7,902 nucleotides of DNA, from the IMG/VR virus record IMGVR_UViG_2541047498_000013; one strand, given 5' to 3'. The notes below the pieces were generated by a model, which did not search any database, was not told where the DNA came from, and saw only the letters and a list, made by a program, of their open reading frames with translations. Positions 1-7,902 of the stretch are shown here, one piece after another; within the stretch, counting starts at the first letter, position 1, and each line of letters opens with the position of its first letter. The DNA comes from a virus. Lineage: Duplodnaviria > Heunggongvirae > Uroviricota > Caudoviricetes. Both the position numbers and the translations under genes were made by a program.

Positions 1-121
1 CGCCAGATTCGGTTTTAAACGTTTTGCTTTTGGTATACGTCATCGCGGTGAATGTACCGTCCTGGTTGGGAAACACGCCGTACACCAGAGATTCGTTGTT
101 GCCAAGATCGATAGTATCCAT
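1..121 (-). CDS. Small phage protein, 5' end only (first 40 codons in window; gene continues beyond the left edge); possibly YdfA/DUF1391-like
   Basis: Minus-strand ATG at 121..119 preceded by GAGG about 5 nt upstream; open frame to the window edge reading MDTIDLGNNESLVYGVFPNQDGTFTAMTYTKSKTFKTESG. Too short for the supplied ORF track. Family name is from memory of small Qin/Rac prophage proteins and is uncertain. Confidence 0.55.
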   Translation of the reverse strand, partial: MDTIDLGNNESLVYGVFPNQDGTFTAMTYTKSKTFKTESG

Positions 122-313
122 GTTGACCTCATTTCCCCTTAACGCCGGGTAGCGGAACAAAAACCTGCTGCATAGTTATTAAAGTTGAACCCTGCCGTCA
201 TGTTCATACGCCTCGGGCTGGCTACTTACCCCCTGACCACTGCTTGGTAACTCGAAGTATTGCCCGGCGTTCTGTGGGGCGGGGTGGGTGGTTGGTGTAT
301 GTAATCTACAATA

Positions 314-341
314 AAAAACTGTTTTTGTGTCAACAGTTTTT
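314..341. promoter_or_regulatory. Palindromic operator-like site (left operator candidate): AAAAACTGTT-N8-AACAGTTTTT
   Basis: Perfect 10-bp inverted repeat read directly. The 16-mer ACAATAAAAAACTGTT at 308..323 is repeated exactly at 1343..1358. A TTGACA hexamer (minus strand, 333..328) lies inside the palindrome. Confidence 0.6.
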
Positions 342-354
342 AATTGTTGTTTTG

Positions 355-381
355 GGCAAAAAAATCCCTCGAAAGAGGGAG
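355..381 (-). terminator. Candidate Rho-independent terminator downstream of the ParE-like gene (minus strand)
   Basis: On the minus strand: stem TCCCTC / GAGGGA (365..370 pairs with 375..380), 4-nt loop, then a run of 7-8 T (plus-strand A run 357..364), starting 18 nt after the toxin stop codon. The stem is short (6 bp), so strength is uncertain. Confidence 0.5.
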
Positions 382-398
382 TATGAAAATTGTTCAAC

Positions 399-686
399 TC
401 AGATAGAGAAGGGAAATTGTCGCCGAGAATGTGTCACGCTTACAATCTCAATGCTTGAAGCAGCTACTCTGTACAGGATTATGTAGTTAGGGTGGGTCAC
501 GATCTCTCTCAATCCAGAAACCCGTTCGCTTGGTGGATATAAGTACGGATGCTCAGATAGAGGTAATACCGATGTTTCAATGCGTATTTTTAGTCTACGT
601 GCTGCCGGTGGGTTCTCCTTGGCGATGTAAGTTATGATCTGGCGCAAATCATCGCGAGCAGACGGTAGCCATAAAATGGGTAACAT
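399..686 (-). CDS. parE: Type II toxin, RelE/ParE superfamily (ParE2-like, gyrase-poisoning family)
   Basis: 95-aa ORF beginning MLPILWLPSARDDL and containing LPLSEHPYLYPPSERVSGLREIVTHPNYIILYRV, which I recognise as ParE-family motifs. Its ATG overlaps the upstream antitoxin stop by 1 nt (TAATG), the typical toxin-antitoxin coupling. Confidence 0.8.
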   Translation of the reverse strand: MLPILWLPSARDDLRQIITYIAKENPPAARRLKIRIETSVLPLSEHPYLYPPSERVSGLREIVTHPNYIILYRVAASSIEIVSVTHSRRQFPFSI

Positions 687-877
687 TACTCGCTCTTGTT
701 AGTTACAGCAATTTGAGCAATAAGATTTTCCATTTCAGCCATTACCTCGTCATGTGGAATTGCGGGGCGAGTGTCTGCAAGGCTTGACGTTACTTTAGTG
801 CGCAACCATTCGTTGTAACTGTTTTCTTGTTCGGTAGTTTCGAATTCTGAAACTATCGGAGAAAGGGCTGTACCCAT
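686..877 (-). CDS. paaA2: Type II antitoxin, PaaA2-like (small antitoxin partner of ParE2-type toxins)
   Basis: 63-aa ORF with SPIVSEFETTEQENSYNEWLRTKVTSSLADTRPAIPHDEV, recalled as closely resembling the 63-aa PaaA2 antitoxin. AGAGGAG Shine-Dalgarno 7 nt upstream of the ATG; sits immediately upstream of and overlapping the toxin. Confidence 0.75.
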   Translation of the reverse strand: MGTALSPIVSEFETTEQENSYNEWLRTKVTSSLADTRPAIPHDEVMAEMENLIAQIAVTNKSE

Positions 878-904
878 GGCATAACTCCTCTTCTTGTACT
901 GTGG

Positions 905-1306
905 TCACGCCCGGCGGCTTTTTTGTGCCGCCAGCCACCTAGCAATGGTTTCTTCCATTGATTTTTTCTTGTCTTTGATTTCTTGAAGCATTTTTTCTTG
1001 GTCTTCCTCAGGAAACGCACTAAAAGCTTGGAGCAGTTCGCGTTGGCGAGGACCAATTTTCATCGTGTCAGGGGTGAAAATTTGCTCACACTCTTCAGGA
1101 GGCAATAAAAACCAATGCAATGGATGCCCTGAAACCTCAACCAGTTTATCCAAACTTGAGGCTTTAGGTGTAGCCTTACCGCTGACCCATTGTTGAACAG
1201 TTTGTTGTGTCACACCAATTCTACGGGCAAGCTCAGCCTGGCTCCATCCAGTTTCCTGAAGAAGCTTGCTGATTCTGTACATAGATACTTCTAGGGCGCT
1301 CATCAT
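905..1306 (-). CDS. paaR2: XRE-family HTH transcriptional regulator, CI-like prophage repressor / PaaR2-like regulator of the toxin-antitoxin operon; no LexA-type peptidase domain seen
   Basis: 133-aa ORF with HTH motif WSQAELARRIGVTQQTVQQWVSGK; no GDSM-type S24 protease motif in the C-terminal half. First gene of a leftward three-gene cluster, divergent from the Cro-like gene. Start uncertain: ATG at 1306 has no Shine-Dalgarno (possibly leaderless); in-frame ATG at 1282 would give MYRISKLL. Confidence 0.75.
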   Translation of the reverse strand: MMSALEVSMYRISKLLQETGWSQAELARRIGVTQQTVQQWVSGKATPKASSLDKLVEVSGHPLHWFLLPPEECEQIFTPDTMKIGPRQRELLQAFSAFPEEDQEKMLQEIKDKKKSMEETIARWLAAQKSRRA

Positions 1307-1347
1307 TATTCAATTTTACAGGTAAATACTGTTAAAAGCATCACAAT

Positions 1348-1376
1348 AAAAAACTGTTGATTGCATACAGTTTTTT
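1348..1376. promoter_or_regulatory. Palindromic operator-like site (right operator candidate) in the divergent regulator / Cro-like intergenic region: AAAAAACTGT-N9-ACAGTTTTTT
   Basis: Perfect 10-bp inverted repeat sharing an exact 16-mer with the 308..341 site. Lies in the 108-bp gap between divergent regulator genes, where a lambdoid right operator would sit; a TTGATT -35-like hexamer is at 1358..1363. Confidence 0.6.
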
Positions 1377-1414
1377 ATTGTAGGCTTTGCTTATAGTTTT
1401 TAGAGGAGGGCAAA

Positions 1415-1687
1415 ATGCTAGATAGCACTCGCGAAAAAATTAGGCAGAAATACACTCAGGCTGAAATAGGTCGTTATATGGGGGTCGCTCAACAGACTGT
1501 TTGGCAATGGTTTAGCTTTGGCGTTCCCCCAAAGCAGGTAATTCCGTTATGCCAACTAATGAAGTGGGAAGTTACCCCGCATGAAATCCGCCCAGATATT
1601 TATCCTAACCCAACCGACGGTTTACCTGTTGGATGTAAGGTTAACACATCAAATGCGCCGGAGTTGATTCATGAAAATCAAGCATGA
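1415..1687 (+). CDS. ydaS: Cro-like HTH regulator (YdaS-family)
   Basis: 90-aa ORF with AGAGGAGGG Shine-Dalgarno 4-5 nt upstream; HTH segment QAEIGRYMGVAQQTVWQWF; divergent from the CI-like gene and overlapping the YdaT-like gene by 17 nt. Symbol by analogy to the Rac prophage locus, not by verified identity. Confidence 0.7.
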   Translation: MLDSTREKIRQKYTQAEIGRYMGVAQQTVWQWFSFGVPPKQVIPLCQLMKWEVTPHEIRPDIYPNPTDGLPVGCKVNTSNAPELIHENQA

Positions 1688-2096
1688 ACACATCCGCATG
1701 GCGATGAATGCCTGGGCGCATCCGGACGGCGAAAAAGTACCGGCTGCGAAAATTACCAAAGCGTATTTCGAGCTGGGAATGACGTTCCCGGAACTGTATG
1801 ACGACAGCCATCCGGAAGCCATGGCTCGCAATACTCAGAAAATTTTCCGCTGGGTGGAGAAAGACACTCCTGATGCGGTTAAAAAAATTCAGGCGTTGTT
1901 ACCAGCGATCGAAAAAGCGATGCCGCCTCCGCTGGTGGCCCGAATGCGCAGCCACAGTTCCGCTTATTTTCGGGAGTTGGTAGAGACGAAGGAACGGCTG
2001 GTGAAAGATATTGATGATTTCGTTGCATCAGCGATCGTTCTGTTCGATCAGATGAATCGTGGTGGCCCGGCAGGAAACACTCTGGCTGTGCATTAA
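1671..2096 (+). CDS. ydaT: YdaT-family protein (CII-like regulator; historically annotated as a putative toxin)
   Basis: 141-aa ORF beginning MKIKHEHIRMAMNAWAHPDGEKVPAAKITKAYFELGMTFPELYDDSHPEA, which I recognise as near-identical in pattern to Rac prophage YdaT. Position directly downstream of the Cro-like gene matches. Confidence 0.8.
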   Translation: MKIKHEHIRMAMNAWAHPDGEKVPAAKITKAYFELGMTFPELYDDSHPEAMARNTQKIFRWVEKDTPDAVKKIQALLPAIEKAMPPPLVARMRSHSSAYFRELVETKERLVKDIDDFVASAIVLFDQMNRGGPAGNTLAVH

Positions 2097-2109
2097 TTGG
2101 GTAATAAAT

Positions 2110-2619
2110 ATGAGTAATGACAAAAAATTGACACTGAGCGTTTACGAAAACAGTCCGCACATCTGGCGTGGCGGTTTATCTGATGTGGAGCTGGCAGAGT
2201 GGTTGATACATAAAGCTAATGCGCTGCTCTGGCGTTTGTCAGCCAGAGAACAGCGCAAGGAAACCAGAATAAAGCTGGCTGATGCAGAAGCGTGTGCCGG
2301 GCTTATTGAGGATTATACAAATCTTGGTATTTCTTCAGCAGAGAGTGATCCCATTCAGCCTCTGAGCAGGGAGTCAATCCAGCACGCTGGTTGTATGGCA
2401 CATCTTGTAACTGCTCGTCAACATGAGGTGGGTATTGGATCACTTCCGGCGGGATATTCGCTGATTCCAGAGCTGGTTGAAGCAAGAAAATCAGTTCAGA
2501 AAAAGAGAGATGACGCACTTCAATTATTGAGAGAGCACTATGGCGCGATACCAGAATGCGAACAGCGTCGATACCCTGAAGGTTATGAATGGATGCAGTC
2601 TCTTTTTGAAGTTCGCTAA
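2110..2619 (+). CDS. Hypothetical phage protein (169 aa from ATG 2110; the ORF is open from 2059)
   Basis: Long ORF in the same orientation as the flanking early genes. Start chosen at MSNDKKLTL (ATG 2110), 14 nt after the ydaT stop; no strong Shine-Dalgarno. No family recognised. Confidence 0.55.
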   Translation: MSNDKKLTLSVYENSPHIWRGGLSDVELAEWLIHKANALLWRLSAREQRKETRIKLADAEACAGLIEDYTNLGISSAESDPIQPLSRESIQHAGCMAHLVTARQHEVGIGSLPAGYSLIPELVEARKSVQKKRDDALQLLREHYGAIPECEQRRYPEGYEWMQSLFEVR

Positions 2620-2836
2620 TCAATATGTCGAGACGAAGGTATGTTTCGGCGCGCAGCCAGGCTCTGTAATCCGGGAGCATTTCGGGGCTGTTACACCAGC
2701 GGTTTGTTGCTGCAACATTTAATACATGAGCCTGATAAAGGCTTTTCAAAAAATACATGTCGAACCTCCTCTGGTTCTGTCGATTGGGAACCACAGATTA
2801 TATCCGGAGGAAGGTTCGGCACCAGATGAGGTAGCC

Positions 2837-3928
2837 ATGCGTGATTACGCAAAAGTTTCTCCGCGATTCTGGCTGGGAGAAACGGGGAGAGAACTTAGAA
2901 AGGCGGGTGCAGAAGCGCAAGTTGTTGCTTTTTACCTGATGACATCCCCTCACGCAAATATGCTGGGTTTGTATTACCTGCCAGTTTTATACCTTGCTCA
3001 TGAAACCGGGCTTGGTCTGGAAGGGGCTTCAAAGGGGCTTAAAAGGGCTGTTGAAGCTGGTTTTTGTAGCTATGACCATGATGCAGAGATGGTCTGGGTC
3101 CATGAAATGGCAGCCTGGCAGGTTGGGGAAACGTTGAAGCCTGGCGATAACCGTTGTGCAGGTGTCAGGAATGAGTATGCATCATTACCTGAAAACGCTT
3201 TTCTGTCAGTGTTTTACGACAGATATAAAACGGATTTCCATCTGGATGTGAGGCGGAATAATAGCCGAAATTCGGTAAGGGGCTTCGAAGGGGCTTTTAA
3301 GGGGCTTCGAAGCCAAGAACAGGAACAGGAGCAGGAGAAAGAACAGGAACAGGACAAAAACACTATGGTTCATGGCAAAAAAAACACCACGAACCAGGCA
3401 GGGGATGTTCAGACCGTCAATCCTGGTCAGCCAGCAGGCACGACACCGGAAGCCGATTCGGGCGCTGTGCAGCAGGTGATGACCGCAGGGTCGGAGCAAT
3501 CACACCAACTGCAGCAGCCTGAAGCCGATTCCGCCATTCAGCGGGAAGCCGATCGGGTAGTCCCGGAAAGCACCGGGCAGTCTGTGGGACGAGTGGATTA
3601 TCCGGATGTGTTCGAACAGGTCTGGCGGGAATACCCGTTGCGTGCTGGGGCAAACCCGAAGAAATCCGCTTTCAGTGCCTGGAAGGCCAGATTGCGCGAG
3701 GGGGTGCCACCAGAGACCATGCTGGATGGTGTGAGGCGTTACGCGAGATACCTGGCGGCGACCGGGAAAGCGGGAACGGAATTTGTTCAGCGAGCGACGA
3801 CGTTTTTTGGGCCGGACCGGAATTTTGAAAACCCCTGGTTGCTCCCGGTAAGCGGCACGAACAACCAGCGTTGTGTGAATCATATTTCTGAACCGGATAC
3901 CGAAATTCCGCCGGGATTCAGGGGGTGA
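2837..3928 (+). CDS. Phage replication initiation protein (lambda O-like / Rac YdaU-like role), with internal repeats and a QEQEQE low-complexity linker
   Basis: Long ORF immediately upstream of the DnaC-like loader gene. Start taken at ATG 2837 (MRDYAKVSPRFWLGETGREL) with GAGG 5 nt upstream; the ORF is open from ATG 2726 but that codon has no Shine-Dalgarno. Internal AAGGGGCTT repeats and A-rich tract are consistent with an origin embedded in an initiator gene. Confidence 0.65.
   Translation: MRDYAKVSPRFWLGETGRELRKAGAEAQVVAFYLMTSPHANMLGLYYLPVLYLAHETGLGLEGASKGLKRAVEAGFCSYDHDAEMVWVHEMAAWQVGETLKPGDNRCAGVRNEYASLPENAFLSVFYDRYKTDFHLDVRRNNSRNSVRGFEGAFKGLRSQEQEQEQEKEQEQDKNTMVHGKKNTTNQAGDVQTVNPGQPAGTTPEADSGAVQQVMTAGSEQSHQLQQPEADSAIQREADRVVPESTGQSVGRVDYPDVFEQVWREYPLRAGANPKKSAFSAWKARLREGVPPETMLDGVRRYARYLAATGKAGTEFVQRATTFFGPDRNFENPWLLPVSGTNNQRCVNHISEPDTEIPPGFRG
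3021..3049. repeat. Iteron-like direct repeats, cluster 1: AAGGGGCTT x2 plus AAGGGCT at 11-bp phasing
   Basis: Copies start at 3021, 3032 and 3043 (read directly); they encode the GLEGASKGLKRA segment of the initiator. Confidence 0.5.
3277..3308. repeat. Iteron-like direct repeats, cluster 2: AAGGGGCTT x3 at exact 11-bp phasing
   Basis: Copies at 3277..3286, 3288..3296 and 3299..3308, immediately followed by a GAACAG-type hexanucleotide repeat and an A-rich tract. Confidence 0.55.
3316..3355. repeat. Imperfect hexanucleotide tandem repeat (GAACAG/GAGCAG units) encoding QEQEQEQEKEQEQ
   Basis: AGAACAGGAACAGGAGCAGGAGAAAGAACAGGAACAGGAC read directly; followed by an A-rich stretch to about 3390. 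Confidence 0.6.
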
Positions 3929-3934
3929 TGTGGC

Positions 3935-4681
3935 ATGAAAAACATTGCGGCAGCCGGGGTTCTTGAACGTATTCGCAGACTTGCACCACAGGCGTCGGTT
4001 CCACCGTACCGGACGGTGGAGGAGTGGCGGGAATGGCAACTTGCTGAAGGACGAAAACGCAGCGAGGAGATTAACCGCCAGAATCACCAGTTGCGGGTGG
4101 AAAAAATCCTGAATCGTTCGGGCATCCAGCCTCTGCACAGCAAATGCTCGTTTGCGAATTATCAGGTGCAGAACGACGGGCAAAAATACGCGCTGAGCCA
4201 GGCCAAATCCATAGCTGACGAACTGATGACCGGGTGCACGAATTTTGTGTTCAGCGGTAAAACCGGCACCGGGAAAAATCACCTTGCAGCGGCGATGGGT
4301 AACCGGCTGATGGCGAAGGGGCGCAGCGTGATTATCGTCACCGTGTCTGATGTCATGAGCGTGTTGCATGACAGCTACGACAACGGCAAATCCGGGGAAA
4401 AATTTTTACAGGAGCTTTGCAGTGTTGATTTGCTGGTCCTGGATGAAATAGGCGTTCAGCGGGAGACGAAAAACGAGCAGGTGGTATTACACCAGATAAT
4501 TGATCGCCGGACAGCATCACTGTGCAGTGTCGGGATGTTAACAAACCTGAATCATGCCGCAATGAGTACACTTCTTGGTGAGAGGATTATGGACCGCATG
4601 ACCATGAACGGTGGTCGATGGGTGACGTTTAACTGGGATAGCTGGCGTCCAAATGTCAGCAATATGAGGGTTGTGAAGTAA
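3935..4681 (+). CDS. DnaC-like replicative helicase loader (AAA+ ATPase; Rac YdaV-like)
   Basis: 248-aa ORF with Walker A GKTGTGKNHLAAA and Walker B LLVLDEIG, and overall DnaC-like layout. GGGGGTGATG Shine-Dalgarno-like sequence upstream; starts 7 nt after the initiator stop. Confidence 0.85.
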   Translation: MKNIAAAGVLERIRRLAPQASVPPYRTVEEWREWQLAEGRKRSEEINRQNHQLRVEKILNRSGIQPLHSKCSFANYQVQNDGQKYALSQAKSIADELMTGCTNFVFSGKTGTGKNHLAAAMGNRLMAKGRSVIIVTVSDVMSVLHDSYDNGKSGEKFLQELCSVDLLVLDEIGVQRETKNEQVVLHQIIDRRTASLCSVGMLTNLNHAAMSTLLGERIMDRMTMNGGRWVTFNWDSWRPNVSNMRVVK

Positions 4682-4702
4682 TTTTGTCCGGAGGAAATTT
4701 TA

Positions 4703-5419
4703 ATGGAAACCGTATCTGACGCACTGAAAGCACTGAAAAGAGCCTCTTCACATGTGGTGGCAGCTCGCCTTGGAATTAGTCGTGAAGAGGCTGTCAACGA
4801 ACTGTGGAAACTGAAACGCCGTGGAGAAGCGGATAACAAGGGGGCGATATGGTGGCTGACTCAGGCTGGTGAAAGTGAACCGGTGTCACCGGTACCGAAA
4901 GTGACGGCGCAAATGCTGACAGAGGCGATTGAACAACATGGCCCACAAACGGCGGATGAACTGGCATTGATGTTCGGAATTACCTCCCGCCGGGCGAATT
5001 CATCGCTGGCAATGGCAATCAGCAAAGGGTGTCTGATTCGCGTGAATCAGGATGGTAAATTTCGTTACTGCATACCGGGCGTTGATTTACCGGCAGAGCC
5101 GAAAGCAGCATCCGTAGCTGAAACGGAGGGTAAAGCCCTTCCTCAGCCAGCTGGTGTTGCGTTACCAGTCCAGGAAACGGCTGCACAGGAAGAAATTAAA
5201 ACAGAAGCGGTGGAGGACATTGTGAAGTTGCAGCAATCGTTCACTGAAGCGAAAGCAGATGACCTGATTCTACCATCGCTGCATGTGGCTAACCGCGAGC
5301 TGCGCCGGGCGAAAAGTAATGTTCAGAAGTGGGAGCGAGTCTGTGCTGCGCTACGGGAACTGAACAAACACAGGGATATTCTCCGGGATATTACCGCCAC
5401 CAGAGAGCAGCAGCGGTGA
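4703..5419 (+). CDS. Hypothetical phage protein with two predicted winged-helix-like segments and a C-terminal coiled-coil-like region (possibly DUF1627-like)
   Basis: 238-aa ORF with GGAGG Shine-Dalgarno 7-8 nt upstream. Segments [25 protein letters not shown] and [27 protein letters not shown] look like HTH / winged-helix motifs. The DUF name is from memory only. Confidence 0.6.
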
Positions 5420-5733
5420 GTGGCTGGAAGAAGTGGCGCTGGGCTGAAATCCTGATACTCCGGCAGTGTGCGGGAACGATGAGAGTCGAAAGCATCGGTT
5501 ATCTGATTGGCCGTAGTGAGTCAGCCGTCAGGACGAAAGCGCGGGAACTGGGTATCAGCATGATGTTACGGGGTGATTATCACCAGTCAGCCAAATGTTC
5601 ACAGCGTGATATTGAGCTGGCGTGGCAACTGCATCAGCGTGGTGTACCCCGACGGGAAATTGCCGAAAAGTTTGGGATGAAGTTGGGCGCAGTGAATAAC
5701 TACGTTTATTTCGACAGGAGGGTTCAGGAGTGA
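5416..5733 (+). CDS. Hypothetical small DNA-binding protein (two HTH-like segments)
   Basis: ORF open from 5329. Start placed at GTG 5416, which overlaps the upstream stop (GTGA) with a GAGAG Shine-Dalgarno-like sequence 8 nt upstream; ATG 5479 is an alternative. Contains [21 protein letters not shown] and [22 protein letters not shown]. Confidence 0.5.
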
Positions 5734-6032
5734 GGGTGAGGGTTTATATCGCCGGTCCGATGACGGGATATGAAAATTTTAACCGCGAGGCATTTCACAA
5801 AACGGAAGAGGTGCTGAAACGGGAAGGGCATACCGTTTTAAACCCGGCAGTACTTCCGGACGGGCTGACTCAGCCACACTACATGGATATTTGCATGGCA
5901 ATGCTCCGTTGCGTGGATGCGGTTTACATGCTGAAAGGCTGGCAGCAGTCGGCAGGTGCAGGGGCTGAGCTGGCACTGGAGGAGAAACCGGGCCATGCGG
6001 TGATTTTTCAGGAGGTGGGCAGTGAATATTGA
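5730..6032 (+). CDS. DUF4406-like protein (nucleoside 2-deoxyribosyltransferase-like fold)
   Basis: 100-aa ORF beginning RVYIAGPMTGYENFN and continuing HTVLNPA...YMLKGWQQSAGAGAELALEE, which I recognise as the DUF4406 / NDT-like signature. GTG start overlaps the upstream stop (GTGA); GTG 5736 with AGGAG 5 nt upstream is an alternative start. Confidence 0.7.
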   Translation: MRVRVYIAGPMTGYENFNREAFHKTEEVLKREGHTVLNPAVLPDGLTQPHYMDICMAMLRCVDAVYMLKGWQQSAGAGAELALEEKPGHAVIFQEVGSEY

Positions 6033-6339
6033 CCCGGCGATAACGATTGATATGGCCCTGAACGCCGGCCTGGCACTTCTTGGTTATTTCTACATTATGT
6101 TCTGCAGCGGACGATGGCTGTCACTGTTGTTCATGAAAAAATGGAATAAACGCCGTAAGCAGGAGCAACGCCAGAAGGCAATGGATGCATTTTTCGAAGC
6201 CTTCGGAATTGACGGCATGGAACCAGGGGATCCAGCTCGCGCAATCAGCAGAGGGGGTGTAGTAATCCTTGTATATCGGAGTGAAGAGAAAAATGACGAT
6301 CACAAAACAACGTGTAGAAGAAATCATATCCCGCATTGA
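6022..6339 (+). CDS. Small predicted membrane protein (one hydrophobic helix followed by a basic KKWNKRRKQEQRQK stretch), function unknown
   Basis: GTG start with AGGAGGTG Shine-Dalgarno 5 nt upstream, overlapping the end of the DUF4406-like gene by 11 nt. Hydrophobic segment MALNAGLALLGYFYIMFCSGRWLSLLFM. A 71-aa antisense ORF (6121..6336) is considered less likely. Confidence 0.5.
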   Translation: MNIDPAITIDMALNAGLALLGYFYIMFCSGRWLSLLFMKKWNKRRKQEQRQKAMDAFFEAFGIDGMEPGDPARAISRGGVVILVYRSEEKNDDHKTTCRRNHIPH

Positions 6340-6610
6340 AATGTATGGACATGGTGCAGGGTATATCGCAGACGAGGTTAATGATCTGGCTATACTGGCG
6401 CTGAATTTATCAAATATCGCGAACCTGAAGCGATACGAGCTTGATATGGGAGGTTGCGACTCGTGCGGTCAGGATTGTGGCGCTGATATGACTGAAGATC
6501 CTGATGGTGATTATGTCCTGTTTGATGACGTGGTTAAGTTGTTTGAATTTGATACAACCACTCAAAAGTTAGAAATCCCGGCAAAGGAGGCAGCCAGTGG
6601 GCAAGATTGA
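6293..6610 (+). CDS. Hypothetical acidic phage protein with a Cys cluster (CDSCGQDCGAD)
   Basis: ORF open from TTG 6269. ATG 6293 (MTITKQRVEEI) chosen; start uncertain because no strong Shine-Dalgarno. Overlaps neighbours on both sides in a different frame. Confidence 0.5.
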   Translation: MTITKQRVEEIISRIEMYGHGAGYIADEVNDLAILALNLSNIANLKRYELDMGGCDSCGQDCGADMTEDPDGDYVLFDDVVKLFEFDTTTQKLEIPAKEAASGQD

Positions 6611-7034
6611 CTATCAGGCACTGCGTGAGGCAGCACAAAACTATCAATCGACGCTGGCGTGGTATCAGGCTACCCCGGACAGCCCAAATGCTGAACGGGA
6701 TTGTGATGCGGCTCTTGCTGCGTTTAAGCGTCACATCCGTCATCGGGAAGCGGATATTATCGCTGATTTGCTGGATGGACTGGAAGAAGCAAAATCACAA
6801 CTCAACGAGCAGCGTGAGTATTACGAAGGCGTTATCTCTGATGGGAGCAAGCGTATTGCTGAACTGGAAGCGCGGGAAGTTCAATTACCGACTCGCTACG
6901 ACCTTCGATATGGACACCCGATAAATGCAGATGAGCGACATGTCATGATACCTAAAGAAAATGGCAGTTGGCTTTACCTGATTGACCTAGAACACGCATT
7001 ACGCGTCGCTGGCATTCGCATCAAAGGAGAGTGA
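6597..7034 (+). CDS. Hypothetical phage protein (145 aa) with a predicted central coiled-coil-like region
   Basis: GTG start with AAGGAGG Shine-Dalgarno 6 nt upstream; overlaps the upstream gene by 14 nt; stop overlaps the next gene's Shine-Dalgarno. Confidence 0.6.
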   Translation: MGKIDYQALREAAQNYQSTLAWYQATPDSPNAERDCDAALAAFKRHIRHREADIIADLLDGLEEAKSQLNEQREYYEGVISDGSKRIAELEAREVQLPTRYDLRYGHPINADERHVMIPKENGSWLYLIDLEHALRVAGIRIKGE

Positions 7035-7035
7035 G

Positions 7036-7227
7036 ATGAACGGACAAATATCAATTGTTCGACCAGGAGCATGTGACGATCGCGAAATACGAATGATTAT
7101 TCGTCTGGCGATGGGGAAAACAATAACTGCTCTCATTACTCCAGAAAATCTCGCATTAGCATTAACAGGAAAGTCAGACATGCCAGTAGAGCTAAAGCTG
7201 CGAAATGTTGAGATTAAGGTGAAATAG
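7036..7227 (+). CDS. Hypothetical small phage protein (63 aa)
   Basis: ATG with AAGGAG Shine-Dalgarno 6 nt upstream, 1 nt after the upstream stop. Confidence 0.6.
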   Translation: MNGQISIVRPGACDDREIRMIIRLAMGKTITALITPENLALALTGKSDMPVELKLRNVEIKVK

Positions 7228-7229
7228 CT

Positions 7230-7787
7230 ATGACCACTATTACCAAAGATCGACTGCTGACAATCCAGCATTGGCGCGAAACATACGGACCGGGTAGCAA
7301 CGTTGTGCTTCCAGCAGAAGAAGCGGAAGAGCTGGCACGGATTGCGCTGGCATCACTGGCAGCAGTATCGGATGAACGAGCAGCCTATGAATTATTTATG
7401 GAGAAGCGTTTCGGAGAATCTGTAGATCGCCGCAGAGCAAAAAATGGCGATAGAGATTACATGGTATGGGATATGGCGCTTGGCTGGATTATCTGGTGTC
7501 ACCGCGCCGCCATGCTTCAGGCTGGAAACTTTCGGGAAAATAAGGGTTCGTCAACCAATAATTTTCGGGAAATCTCGGAAACGTCAACCAACTATCCGGC
7601 AATCCCTGATGAGGTGTTGTCCGCAATCCTGAAGGTCGCCAGGCTTCGTGCAGATTTCGATGCTTCTGAAGTGGACAGGCGAGGTATCGGTAGTTGTCTG
7701 GATGAGGCCGAGCAAGAACTTATCGTTACCATTAACGAATACGCCAGTCAGATCGCAGTAGAAGCGACACAGGGGGAGAACCAATGA
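7230..7787 (+). CDS. Hypothetical phage protein (185 aa)
   Basis: ATG 2 nt after the upstream stop with AAGGTG 7-8 nt upstream; long ORF co-oriented with the cassette. No family recognised. Confidence 0.6.
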   Translation: MTTITKDRLLTIQHWRETYGPGSNVVLPAEEAEELARIALASLAAVSDERAAYELFMEKRFGESVDRRRAKNGDRDYMVWDMALGWIIWCHRAAMLQAGNFRENKGSSTNNFREISETSTNYPAIPDEVLSAILKVARLRADFDASEVDRRGIGSCLDEAEQELIVTINEYASQIAVEATQGENQ

Positions 7788-7861
7788 GCCGGCCAGATGC
7801 ATTTGCAGGCGTTGCTATAGCTATTGCTTTTCTAGTATATGTTATTTGTCGGTGGGGGTAA
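7784..7861 (+). CDS. Unannotated 25-aa hydrophobic peptide (MSRPDAFAGVAIAIAFLVYVICRWG), predicted single-pass membrane peptide
   Basis: ATG overlaps the upstream stop (ATGA) and is preceded by GGGGAG 6 nt upstream. Below the length cut-off of the supplied ORF track. Hydrophobic core AGVAIAIAFLVYVI. Confidence 0.45.
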   Translation: MSRPDAFAGVAIAIAFLVYVICRWG

Positions 7862-7896
7862 AAACGTTCGCCGGGATTCACACCAAGGGAGGGAAT

Positions 7897-7902
7897 ATGT
7901 CG
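7897..7902 (+). CDS. Start of a further rightward gene (only 2 codons in window)
   Basis: ATG at 7897 preceded by AAGGGAGGG 3-4 nt upstream; truncated by the window edge. Confidence 0.35.

Follow-up and report, generated by a model that had tools for sequence, protein, structure and literature searches.

A 9-bp word forms two phased arrays in a prophage initiator gene

The DNA analysed here, referred to as the window, is a stretch of 7902 base pairs (bp) from a Caudoviricetes genome (IMG/VR record IMGVR_UViG_2541047498_000013) and is the immunity and early-right (replication) region of a lambdoid prophage of the Escherichia coli O157 type. It carries a gene for a 'hypothetical protein' of 363 amino acids (aa) that, by its position and its neighbours, is the phage replication initiator; the gene for a DnaC-like helicase loader follows immediately downstream (Table 1). 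Within the initiator gene we found two arrays of a 9-bp word, spaced at 11 bp, that travel together with the N-terminal domain (N-domain) of the initiator. Judging from sequence, the initiator itself very probably binds the two sets of words, and the region is probably an iteron-type replication origin of the prophage, embedded in the coding sequence of its own initiator, as analogy with characterised systems also suggests.

The exact 9-mer AAGGGGCTT, in which palindromic arms flank a G/C core (AAG-GGG-CTT), occurs on the two strands of the window only at 3021, 3032, 3277, 3288 and 3299, that is, five times compared to about 0.06 times expected from base composition. Tandem Repeats Finder returned period-11 arrays at 3021–3047 and 3277–3312, a period-6 array (GAACAG) at 3317–3354 and no other repeat array in the window, and in a repeat alignment 3016–3057 pairs with 3272–3313 at an offset of 256 bp. 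A preliminary description of this DNA had listed three words at 11-bp spacing in each of two sets, the second followed by a GAACAG-type repeat. The second set (cluster 2) and the hexamer repeat behind it are as described, all three words being exact; a terminal half unit, AAGCC, creates a 12-bp palindrome, GGCTTCGAAGCC, at 3303–3314. In the first set (cluster 1) the first two words are exact, and the third (AAGGGCTGT) is degenerate, with three mismatches or the deletion of one G. Cluster 1 encodes EGASKGLKRAVEAG, while cluster 2 falls in a predicted disordered linker (aa 147–160). Phased copies of the word are present within the coding sequence of the initiator where its predicted DNA-binding and partner-recruiting domains meet. 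As 11 bp is not a multiple of three, the frame shifts from each unit to the next, and all three frames are used (GLEGASKGLKRA, VRGFEGAFKGLRS).

The words are conserved as DNA

We searched for homologues with the N-terminal 175 aa of the initiator and retrieved 1192 protein clusters at E ≤ 1e-3, as well as annotated phages that infect Klebsiella, Shigella, Escherichia, Acinetobacter and Ralstonia. Contigs representing one genome per species yielded 71 loci from Gamma- and Betaproteobacteria and from metagenome-assembled genomes (MAGs) assigned to Acidobacteriota, Planctomycetes, Elusimicrobia and others. A codon alignment of 69 genes from several phyla (45–80% identity) was then compared with the expectation from each gene's own codon usage. 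The codons of cluster 1 proved to be nearly invariant (GAA 98%, GGG 95%, GCT 85%, AAG 100%, GGG 89% and CTT 94%, with 17–62% expected), as did those of cluster 2 (GAA, GCC, CCT, AAG, CGA and AGC each 100%, CCC 96%). The codon in the spacer between units varies (TCG in 59%), the 2-nucleotide (nt) spacers drift and the codons flanking the clusters are near expectation. Among 92 conserved columns, the cluster codons occupy ranks 1–7 for excess fixation of a synonymous codon (Mann-Whitney p = 4e-8), and the exact word reaches a density of 6.75 per kilobase in the cluster zones of the 69 loci versus 0.03 elsewhere (220-fold enrichment), being essentially absent from flanking DNA, promoter regions included.

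The preliminary description had named an outcome that would speak against a function at the DNA level, namely a repeated peptide whose synonymous sites diverge among homologues. We observed the opposite: the synonymous sites are frozen, and cluster 2 even changes its orientation, as set out below. The DNA of the repeats is more strongly conserved than the protein would demand, and the word arrays are held by purifying selection on DNA and not on the peptide.

Orientation, co-variation and spacing of the arrays

In most lineages cluster 2 is present as the reverse complement, AAGCCCCTT, with the 11-bp phase kept and directly before the same Ser-Gln-(Glu-Gln)n stretch. The inverted cluster 2 encodes EAPSKPL and the direct one EGASKGL. 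Inversion accordingly alters the peptide yet keeps the DNA word and its phase, which refutes an explanation by a repeated peptide. Cluster 2 could be classified in 55 genes, isolated phages included, of which 36 are inverted and nine direct (among them the window and the isolated phage Fraca), the rest being mixed.

The word is constant across hosts of different phyla but changes with the subfamily of the initiator N-domain: a subfamily with 31% identity (Klebsiella phage ST13-OXA48phi12.4 and relatives; L009) carries GAAAGGGTT at 11-bp phasing in both clusters. In the window's family, the distance between the cluster anchors is 89, 93, 97 and 105 codons in 4, 24, 28 and 1 genes, respectively, with no other values. 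Any two of these distances are a multiple of 12 nt apart, and among in-frame lengths 12 nt comes nearest to one helical turn. The insertions and deletions represent few independent events, and such turn-stepped spacing is suggestive of a need for the two arrays to keep their relative helical phase.

Two homologues from MAGs show arrays of a different make-up. One from Acidobacteriota (L072) has eight phased units in cluster 2 (gene nt 470–555). In another, from Ignavibacteriales (L074), a variant word, GAAGGGGTC, occurs in two nearby sets (2932–3090) with no recognisable cluster 1, and behind these sets comes a (CTCCTG)n repeat that is pyrimidine-rich on the coding strand.

The words belong to an exchangeable N-domain module

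The 363-aa protein matches no Pfam family at E ≤ 0.01. At this level it has no homology to lambda O (Phage_rep_O), although some database records call its relatives 'replication protein O' (an annotation only), and it matches neither PF09681 and PF09524, which typify SPP1 G38P, nor the RepA_N domain PF06970; a distant homologue, P0118, has PF09524 in its different C-terminal part. The protein is assigned to PHROG 1701 ('DnaD-like helicase loader'), and its C-terminus has weak similarity to DnaT. Its layout consists of a predicted winged-helix N-domain (about aa 1–130), a disordered linker (about aa 131–185) and the weakly DnaT-like C-terminal domain (C-domain). In an AlphaFold2 model, the predicted local distance difference test (pLDDT) score is below 50 over aa 131–164, and the helix at aa 60–73, in a block with pLDDT 74–79, is the third helix and the one encoded by cluster 1. 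In canonical winged-helix proteins the third helix is the recognition helix. According to the model, cluster 1 would therefore overlap the codons of the predicted recognition helix, and the co-variation of word and N-domain, along with the predicted winged helix, suggests that the initiator binds the words.

The two halves of the gene occur in different combinations. By megablast, the C-terminal half (from window position 3357) is about 92% identical in many coliphages that have other N-domains, which places a mosaic joint to an exchangeable C-domain at about 3357, right after the repeats and the Glu-Gln (EQ) tract. The reverse case is found in relatives in which the same N-domain and words occur with different C-domains and next to primase-helicase genes. 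Because the halves are exchanged in this manner, the words are part of the N-domain module, as they are in lambda O and in pSK41 and pPR9; in lambda O, too, the mosaic joint comes directly behind the origin repeats.

The tract beside cluster 2

The hexamer repeat behind cluster 2 encodes an (EQ)n peptide that is kept in nearly all homologues, and the zone has a mean purine fraction of 0.80–0.83 family-wide. The repeat is primarily a flexible (EQ)n linker, and its purine-rich DNA may aid an unwinding tract. Such a tract, A-rich (GACAAAAACACTATGGTTCATGGCAAAAAAAACACC; candidate unwinding region A), had been part of the preliminary description. It is real as a strand asymmetry (3313–3395 is 72% purine, with AT skew up to 0.87) and only mildly AT-rich, with a GC content of 0.45. 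The likeness to lambda drawn there, of iterons beside an AT-rich unwinding region within the initiator gene, is supported, with the caveats that the AT-rich region is weak and that the initiator is no homologue of lambda O.

The lowest GC content of the gene (0.38) is instead reached between the clusters (candidate unwinding region B). A drop in GC content of 0.10 to 0.15 is seen family-wide some 100 nt upstream of cluster 2. This deepest dip coincides with a conserved F/Y/K-rich motif, and as the segment also encodes this motif, the signal is only partly one of DNA. At synonymous sites (third codon positions, GC3), GC content is lowered by 0.06–0.22 family-wide in a zone that begins some 90 nt upstream of cluster 2 (aa 117 onward) and extends past the repeat.

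We note a similarity among the tracts that follow the last iteron: GACAAAAACACTATGG in the window (3353–3368), GATCAAAACACTATGG in phage Tritos and GACACAAAAGACACTATTAC in lambda (J02459, about 39120–39137). This could reflect a shared unwinding element or a chance match of A-rich sequences.

The same layout recurs with a different N-domain

Escherichia phage Tritos has the C-domain in common with the window, while its N-domain is without detectable similarity to that of the window family (hhalign probability 0.1%), so that no homology of the two N-domain families was detected by hhalign. The Tritos gene carries GTCAC(G) at nt 129, 139, 149 and 160 and again at 389, 399, 409, 420 and 430 (1154–1192 and 1414–1496 in locus L241). 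Behind the second cluster come a hexamer repeat (ACAGAT/AAAGAT, which encodes TDKD) and then the same mosaic joint as in the window. Among its relatives, the word is unchanged in Aeromonas and Pseudomonas phages, a spring-water phage has CGAACGC at 122–144 and 333–363 followed by (GAA)n, and Ralstonia phage Firinga has GCAACG at 130–182 and 401–431 followed by a GAGAAG-rich tract. Tritos-type initiators (L241–L245) thus combine words that differ by lineage (GTCACG, CGAACGC or GCAACG, at about 10-bp phasing) with two phased clusters 211–271 bp apart, both in direct orientation, and a purine-rich repeat of 3 or 6 nt. A purine-rich tract of relatively low GC content after the second cluster is common to the window and Tritos families, with differing peptides. 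The idea that two separated clusters might permit looping, raised in the preliminary description, gains support from this recurrence in a family without detectable similarity, from the conservation of the bipartite layout and from the 12-nt steps in spacing.

A putative bipartite origin and its alternatives

How might such an origin work? At both clusters, cluster 2 in the linker-coding segment and cluster 1 some 270 bp upstream of it, monomers of the winged-helix N-domain would line up next to one another on the phased words, all on the same face of the helix. Contact between the protein arrays would then loop or wrap the DNA in between, and the resulting strain, along with supercoiling and transcription from the early promoter, would open a low-stability segment beside cluster 2, either the purine- and A-rich tract (3313–3395) or the AT-rich segment between the clusters (3180–3245). 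The DnaT-like C-domain could next recruit the DnaC-like loader with host DnaB.

It is doubtful, and put forward tentatively, that this reflects a general bipartite origin design of ATPase-less winged-helix phage initiators, in which two arrays about 25 turns apart, at whole-turn spacing, are bridged by the initiator into a loop or wrap of about 270 bp and the adjacent tract melts. We are equally hesitant about the proposal that, within such a scheme, the placement of one array in the region coding for the DNA-binding domain and of the other in the linker represents a design not described before. As the upstream array would make up the codons of the recognition helix, reader and site would be the same DNA and would have to co-evolve.

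Several observations weigh against an origin at this site. The status of the region as an origin is argued from analogy and conservation, and no plasmid relying on this module was found. (A match to a small 'plasmid' was discarded as evidence, being a mis-assigned linear chromosomal fragment that carries a prophage.) The prophage in the window may be defective. Confidence in the N-domain model is modest (mean pLDDT 58), and a few homologues (L054, L074) have no recognisable cluster 1. The tract after cluster 2 (GC content 0.45 versus 0.53 for the gene) contains no strong AT-rich element. The codons of the (EQ)n stretch are near background (GAA 59–67% versus 51%, CAG 58–75% versus about 60%), and selection at the DNA level accordingly does not act on GAACAG as an exact sequence. 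Lastly, in genes of the inverted type cluster 1 is complementary to cluster 2, with a predicted duplex of about −46 kcal/mol, so that a second role apart from that of an origin is conceivable, a point to which we return below.

The alternative that survives best, and that we nevertheless consider unlikely, is that the words bind the initiator mainly for a purpose other than origin firing (autoregulation, handcuffing or copy control, or a conserved DNA linker through which N- and C-domain modules recombine), with the origin located elsewhere. In its favour, the mosaic joint comes immediately after the repeats and the EQ tract, a strong AT-rich DNA unwinding element (DUE) is lacking and two separated arrays resemble the control iterons established for plasmids P1 and R6K. 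Autoregulation, handcuffing or module exchange as the sole role nonetheless appears less parsimonious than an origin, since intragenic repeats are the origin in all characterised systems of such architecture (lambda, SPP1 and pSK41). Moreover, the window has no other repeat array, the word is essentially missing from the flanks of the 69 loci, including the promoter regions, and recombination linkers require neither 11-bp phasing nor flips that preserve the word.

Very unlikely, by comparison, is a pairing of the clusters as RNA or single-stranded DNA over about 250 nt, in a long-range stem that would control translation or stability of the initiator message. The complementarity of the inverted type would permit such a stem, the segment of an Acinetobacter phage folds with z = −7.2 and its clusters paired, and that of the window has z = −3.9, here by way of local hairpins. 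However, the nine direct-type genes, the window and Fraca included, keep the words without a long stem (about −25 kcal/mol), mixed orientations occur and both Tritos-type clusters are direct. In addition, cognate pairs of clusters have no advantage in stability over non-cognate pairs (permutation p = 0.10), the spacers show no co-variation and there is no match to an Rfam family.

We give marginally less credence still to binding of the words by another protein, be it a host factor, a partition protein resembling ParB or some regulator of the phage. A ParB-family gene does adjoin the initiator in some relatives. Yet the word is constant across phyla while it changes with the N-domain subfamily, and the neighbours vary (a DnaC-like loader or a primase-helicase downstream, differing regulators upstream), such that only the N-domain always accompanies the words. 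Finally, it is hardly credible that the repeats merely reflect the duplication of a peptide and have no function as DNA: the heptapeptide EGASKGL is indeed encoded by both clusters in the window and several enterobacterial homologues, but at an 11-bp period the frame differs from one unit to the next, synonymous sites are frozen, cluster 2 of most lineages encodes EAPSKPL from the reverse-complemented word and this cluster lies in a predicted disordered linker.

Two further candidates were set aside. A putative −1 frameshift site, A_AAG_GGG at 3031–3037, is in the correct frame for the X_XXY_YYZ pattern and is not conserved; it depends on a variable spacer base that is A in the window and G in 59% of homologues. 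Pausing at Shine-Dalgarno-like sites is incompatible with the inverted copies.

Comparison with characterised origins

Taken as a probable origin, the element falls into an established class, that of iteron origins lying within their initiator gene, and is here bipartite. What sets it apart are the 9-bp, orientation-tolerant words at one per turn and the conserved second array, about 270 bp upstream over the predicted recognition-helix codons. We did not find the word or the origin of this family described in the literature, the coverage of which was incomplete, so that this is no proof of novelty.

The lambda origin has been proven experimentally to lie in gene O (PMC7466680). Akin to lambda, the putative origin of the window sits midway through the initiator gene, where the N- and C-domains meet, its iterons are followed by a purine- and A-rich tract on the coding strand (GACAAAAACACTAT resembles lambda GACACAAAAGACACTAT), the N-terminal half would set origin specificity while the C-terminal half meets the loader encoded by the next gene, and the position in the lambdoid early-right operon is the same. 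Unlike in lambda, the initiator is without homology to O (no Pfam match), the loader is DnaC/IstB-like rather than lambda P, the AT-rich element is much weaker, and 9-bp words at 11-bp spacing in two arrays take the place of four palindromic iterons of 18–19 bp at 20–24 bp. When lambda O was analysed in the same manner, it showed a single cluster and no second array upstream.

In phage SPP1, with its replisome organizer G38P and loader G39P, oriL lies in gene 38, as proven experimentally; G38P binds AB boxes in its own gene beside the DUE, a 356-bp fragment is sufficient in vitro, and oriR, a second region bound by G38P, is a discrete and distant site in the genome (PMC5737612). The two systems have in common a replisome organizer that is not an ATPase, with repeats in its own gene, and PHROG groups the window protein with DnaD-like and replisome-organizer proteins. 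They differ in the type of repeat and the host clade, the window protein has no PF09681 or PF09524 match, and its second array is 270 bp upstream within the gene, as opposed to the distant second region of SPP1.

Plasmid pSK41 has Rep boxes inside rep, again proven experimentally, which are bound at a central position in the gene by the winged-helix N-terminal domain; the segment encoded by the origin is a dispensable linker and the C-terminal domain recruits a host replication protein, and in pPR9 the N-terminal domain and the origin are exchanged as a unit (PMC5703833). A winged-helix N-domain, central intragenic boxes and a module of N-domain and origin are likewise predicted here. The window protein, however, has no PF06970 match, and its module belongs to phages of Gram-negative bacteria whereas RepA_N is found on Gram-positive plasmids; pSK41 has one cluster of four boxes, and the partner is DnaG primase and not a DnaC-like loader.

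In Staphylococcus aureus pathogenicity islands (SaPIs), iterons of 5–6 bp are read by a winged-helix domain and form two opposed sets flanking an AT-rich region (PMC9371898). These opposed sets resemble our homologues of the inverted type, whose clusters flank the segment of lowest GC content; the clusters of the window, by contrast, are in direct orientation. The SaPI origin is downstream of rep and not inside it, the initiator is a self-loading helicase and the sets are much closer together.

If the region is indeed an origin, the arrays would offer a rule at the level of sequence by which origins could be found in a large class of Pfam-orphan replication modules of temperate phages and prophages. 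This class counts more than 1000 protein clusters in the searched database, ranges from enterobacteria to Acidobacteria and takes in Shiga toxin-converting and Acinetobacter phages. The arrays are also an unusually clean natural case of selection on DNA within a coding region, the word being kept while orientation and peptide are flipped. The recurring layout of two arrays at turn-quantised spacing would predict looping or wrapping as the means by which ATPase-less initiators open DNA, and the module of N-domain and words would predict replication specificity and incompatibility among prophages that reside together in enterohaemorrhagic E. coli strains.

Gene context of the window

The segment 2700–3950 is 100% identical to E. 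coli O157:H7 chromosomes (NZ_AP018488 and others), and the window as a whole is 99.8% identical to NZ_AP018488 across 8–4816 and divergent beyond. The DnaC-like loader is the presumed partner of the initiator C-domain.

Table 1. Genes and sequence features of the window, with positions counted from its first letter.
Feature	Position	Strand	Remarks
RelE/RelB toxin-antitoxin genes	399–877	−	
cI-like repressor	905–1306	−	
YdaS/Cro-like gene	1415–1687		
YdaT/CII-like gene	1671–2096		
'ECs1072 family' gene	2303–2758	−	
Initiator gene	2837–3928	+	363 aa, 'hypothetical protein'
Iteron cluster 1	3020–3062	+	exact AAGGGGCTT at 3021–3029 and 3032–3040; degenerate unit at 3043–3051; phased partial unit at 3054–3062
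Lowest-GC segment of the gene, between clusters	3180–3245		candidate unwinding region B; GC content 0.38
Iteron cluster 2	3277–3314	+	exact AAGGGGCTT at 3277, 3288 and 3299; terminal half unit AAGCC at 3310–3314
GAACAG-type hexanucleotide repeat	3317–3362	+	(EQ)n acidic linker; purine-rich top strand; Tandem Repeats Finder
A-rich tract GACAAAAACACTATGGTTCATGGCAAAAAAAACACC	3355–3395	+	candidate unwinding region A
DnaC/IstB-like AAA+ helicase-loader gene	3935–4681	+	PF01695, E = 4e-19; PHROG 50 'DnaC-like helicase loader', E = 3e-83
DUF1627 gene			

Past 4816 the window departs from the O157:H7 reference, which has an IS66-family insertion there, and the genes in 4817–7902 match PHROGs that are mostly of unknown function. 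The divergence after this position shows that modules have been exchanged just downstream of the replication genes. At the other end, the RefSeq annotation of the identical sequence has a RelE/ParE-RelB pair that directly adjoins the cI-like repressor, within the immunity region. Two open reading frames (ORFs) on opposite strands overlap and each has a family match, namely 2059–2619 (+; PHROG 8304, E = 6e-120) and 2303–2758 (−; NCBIfam 'ECs1072 family', E = 2e-30), the latter being the one that RefSeq annotates. It is likely that at most one of them is a real gene, and the other family may be founded on shadow ORFs.

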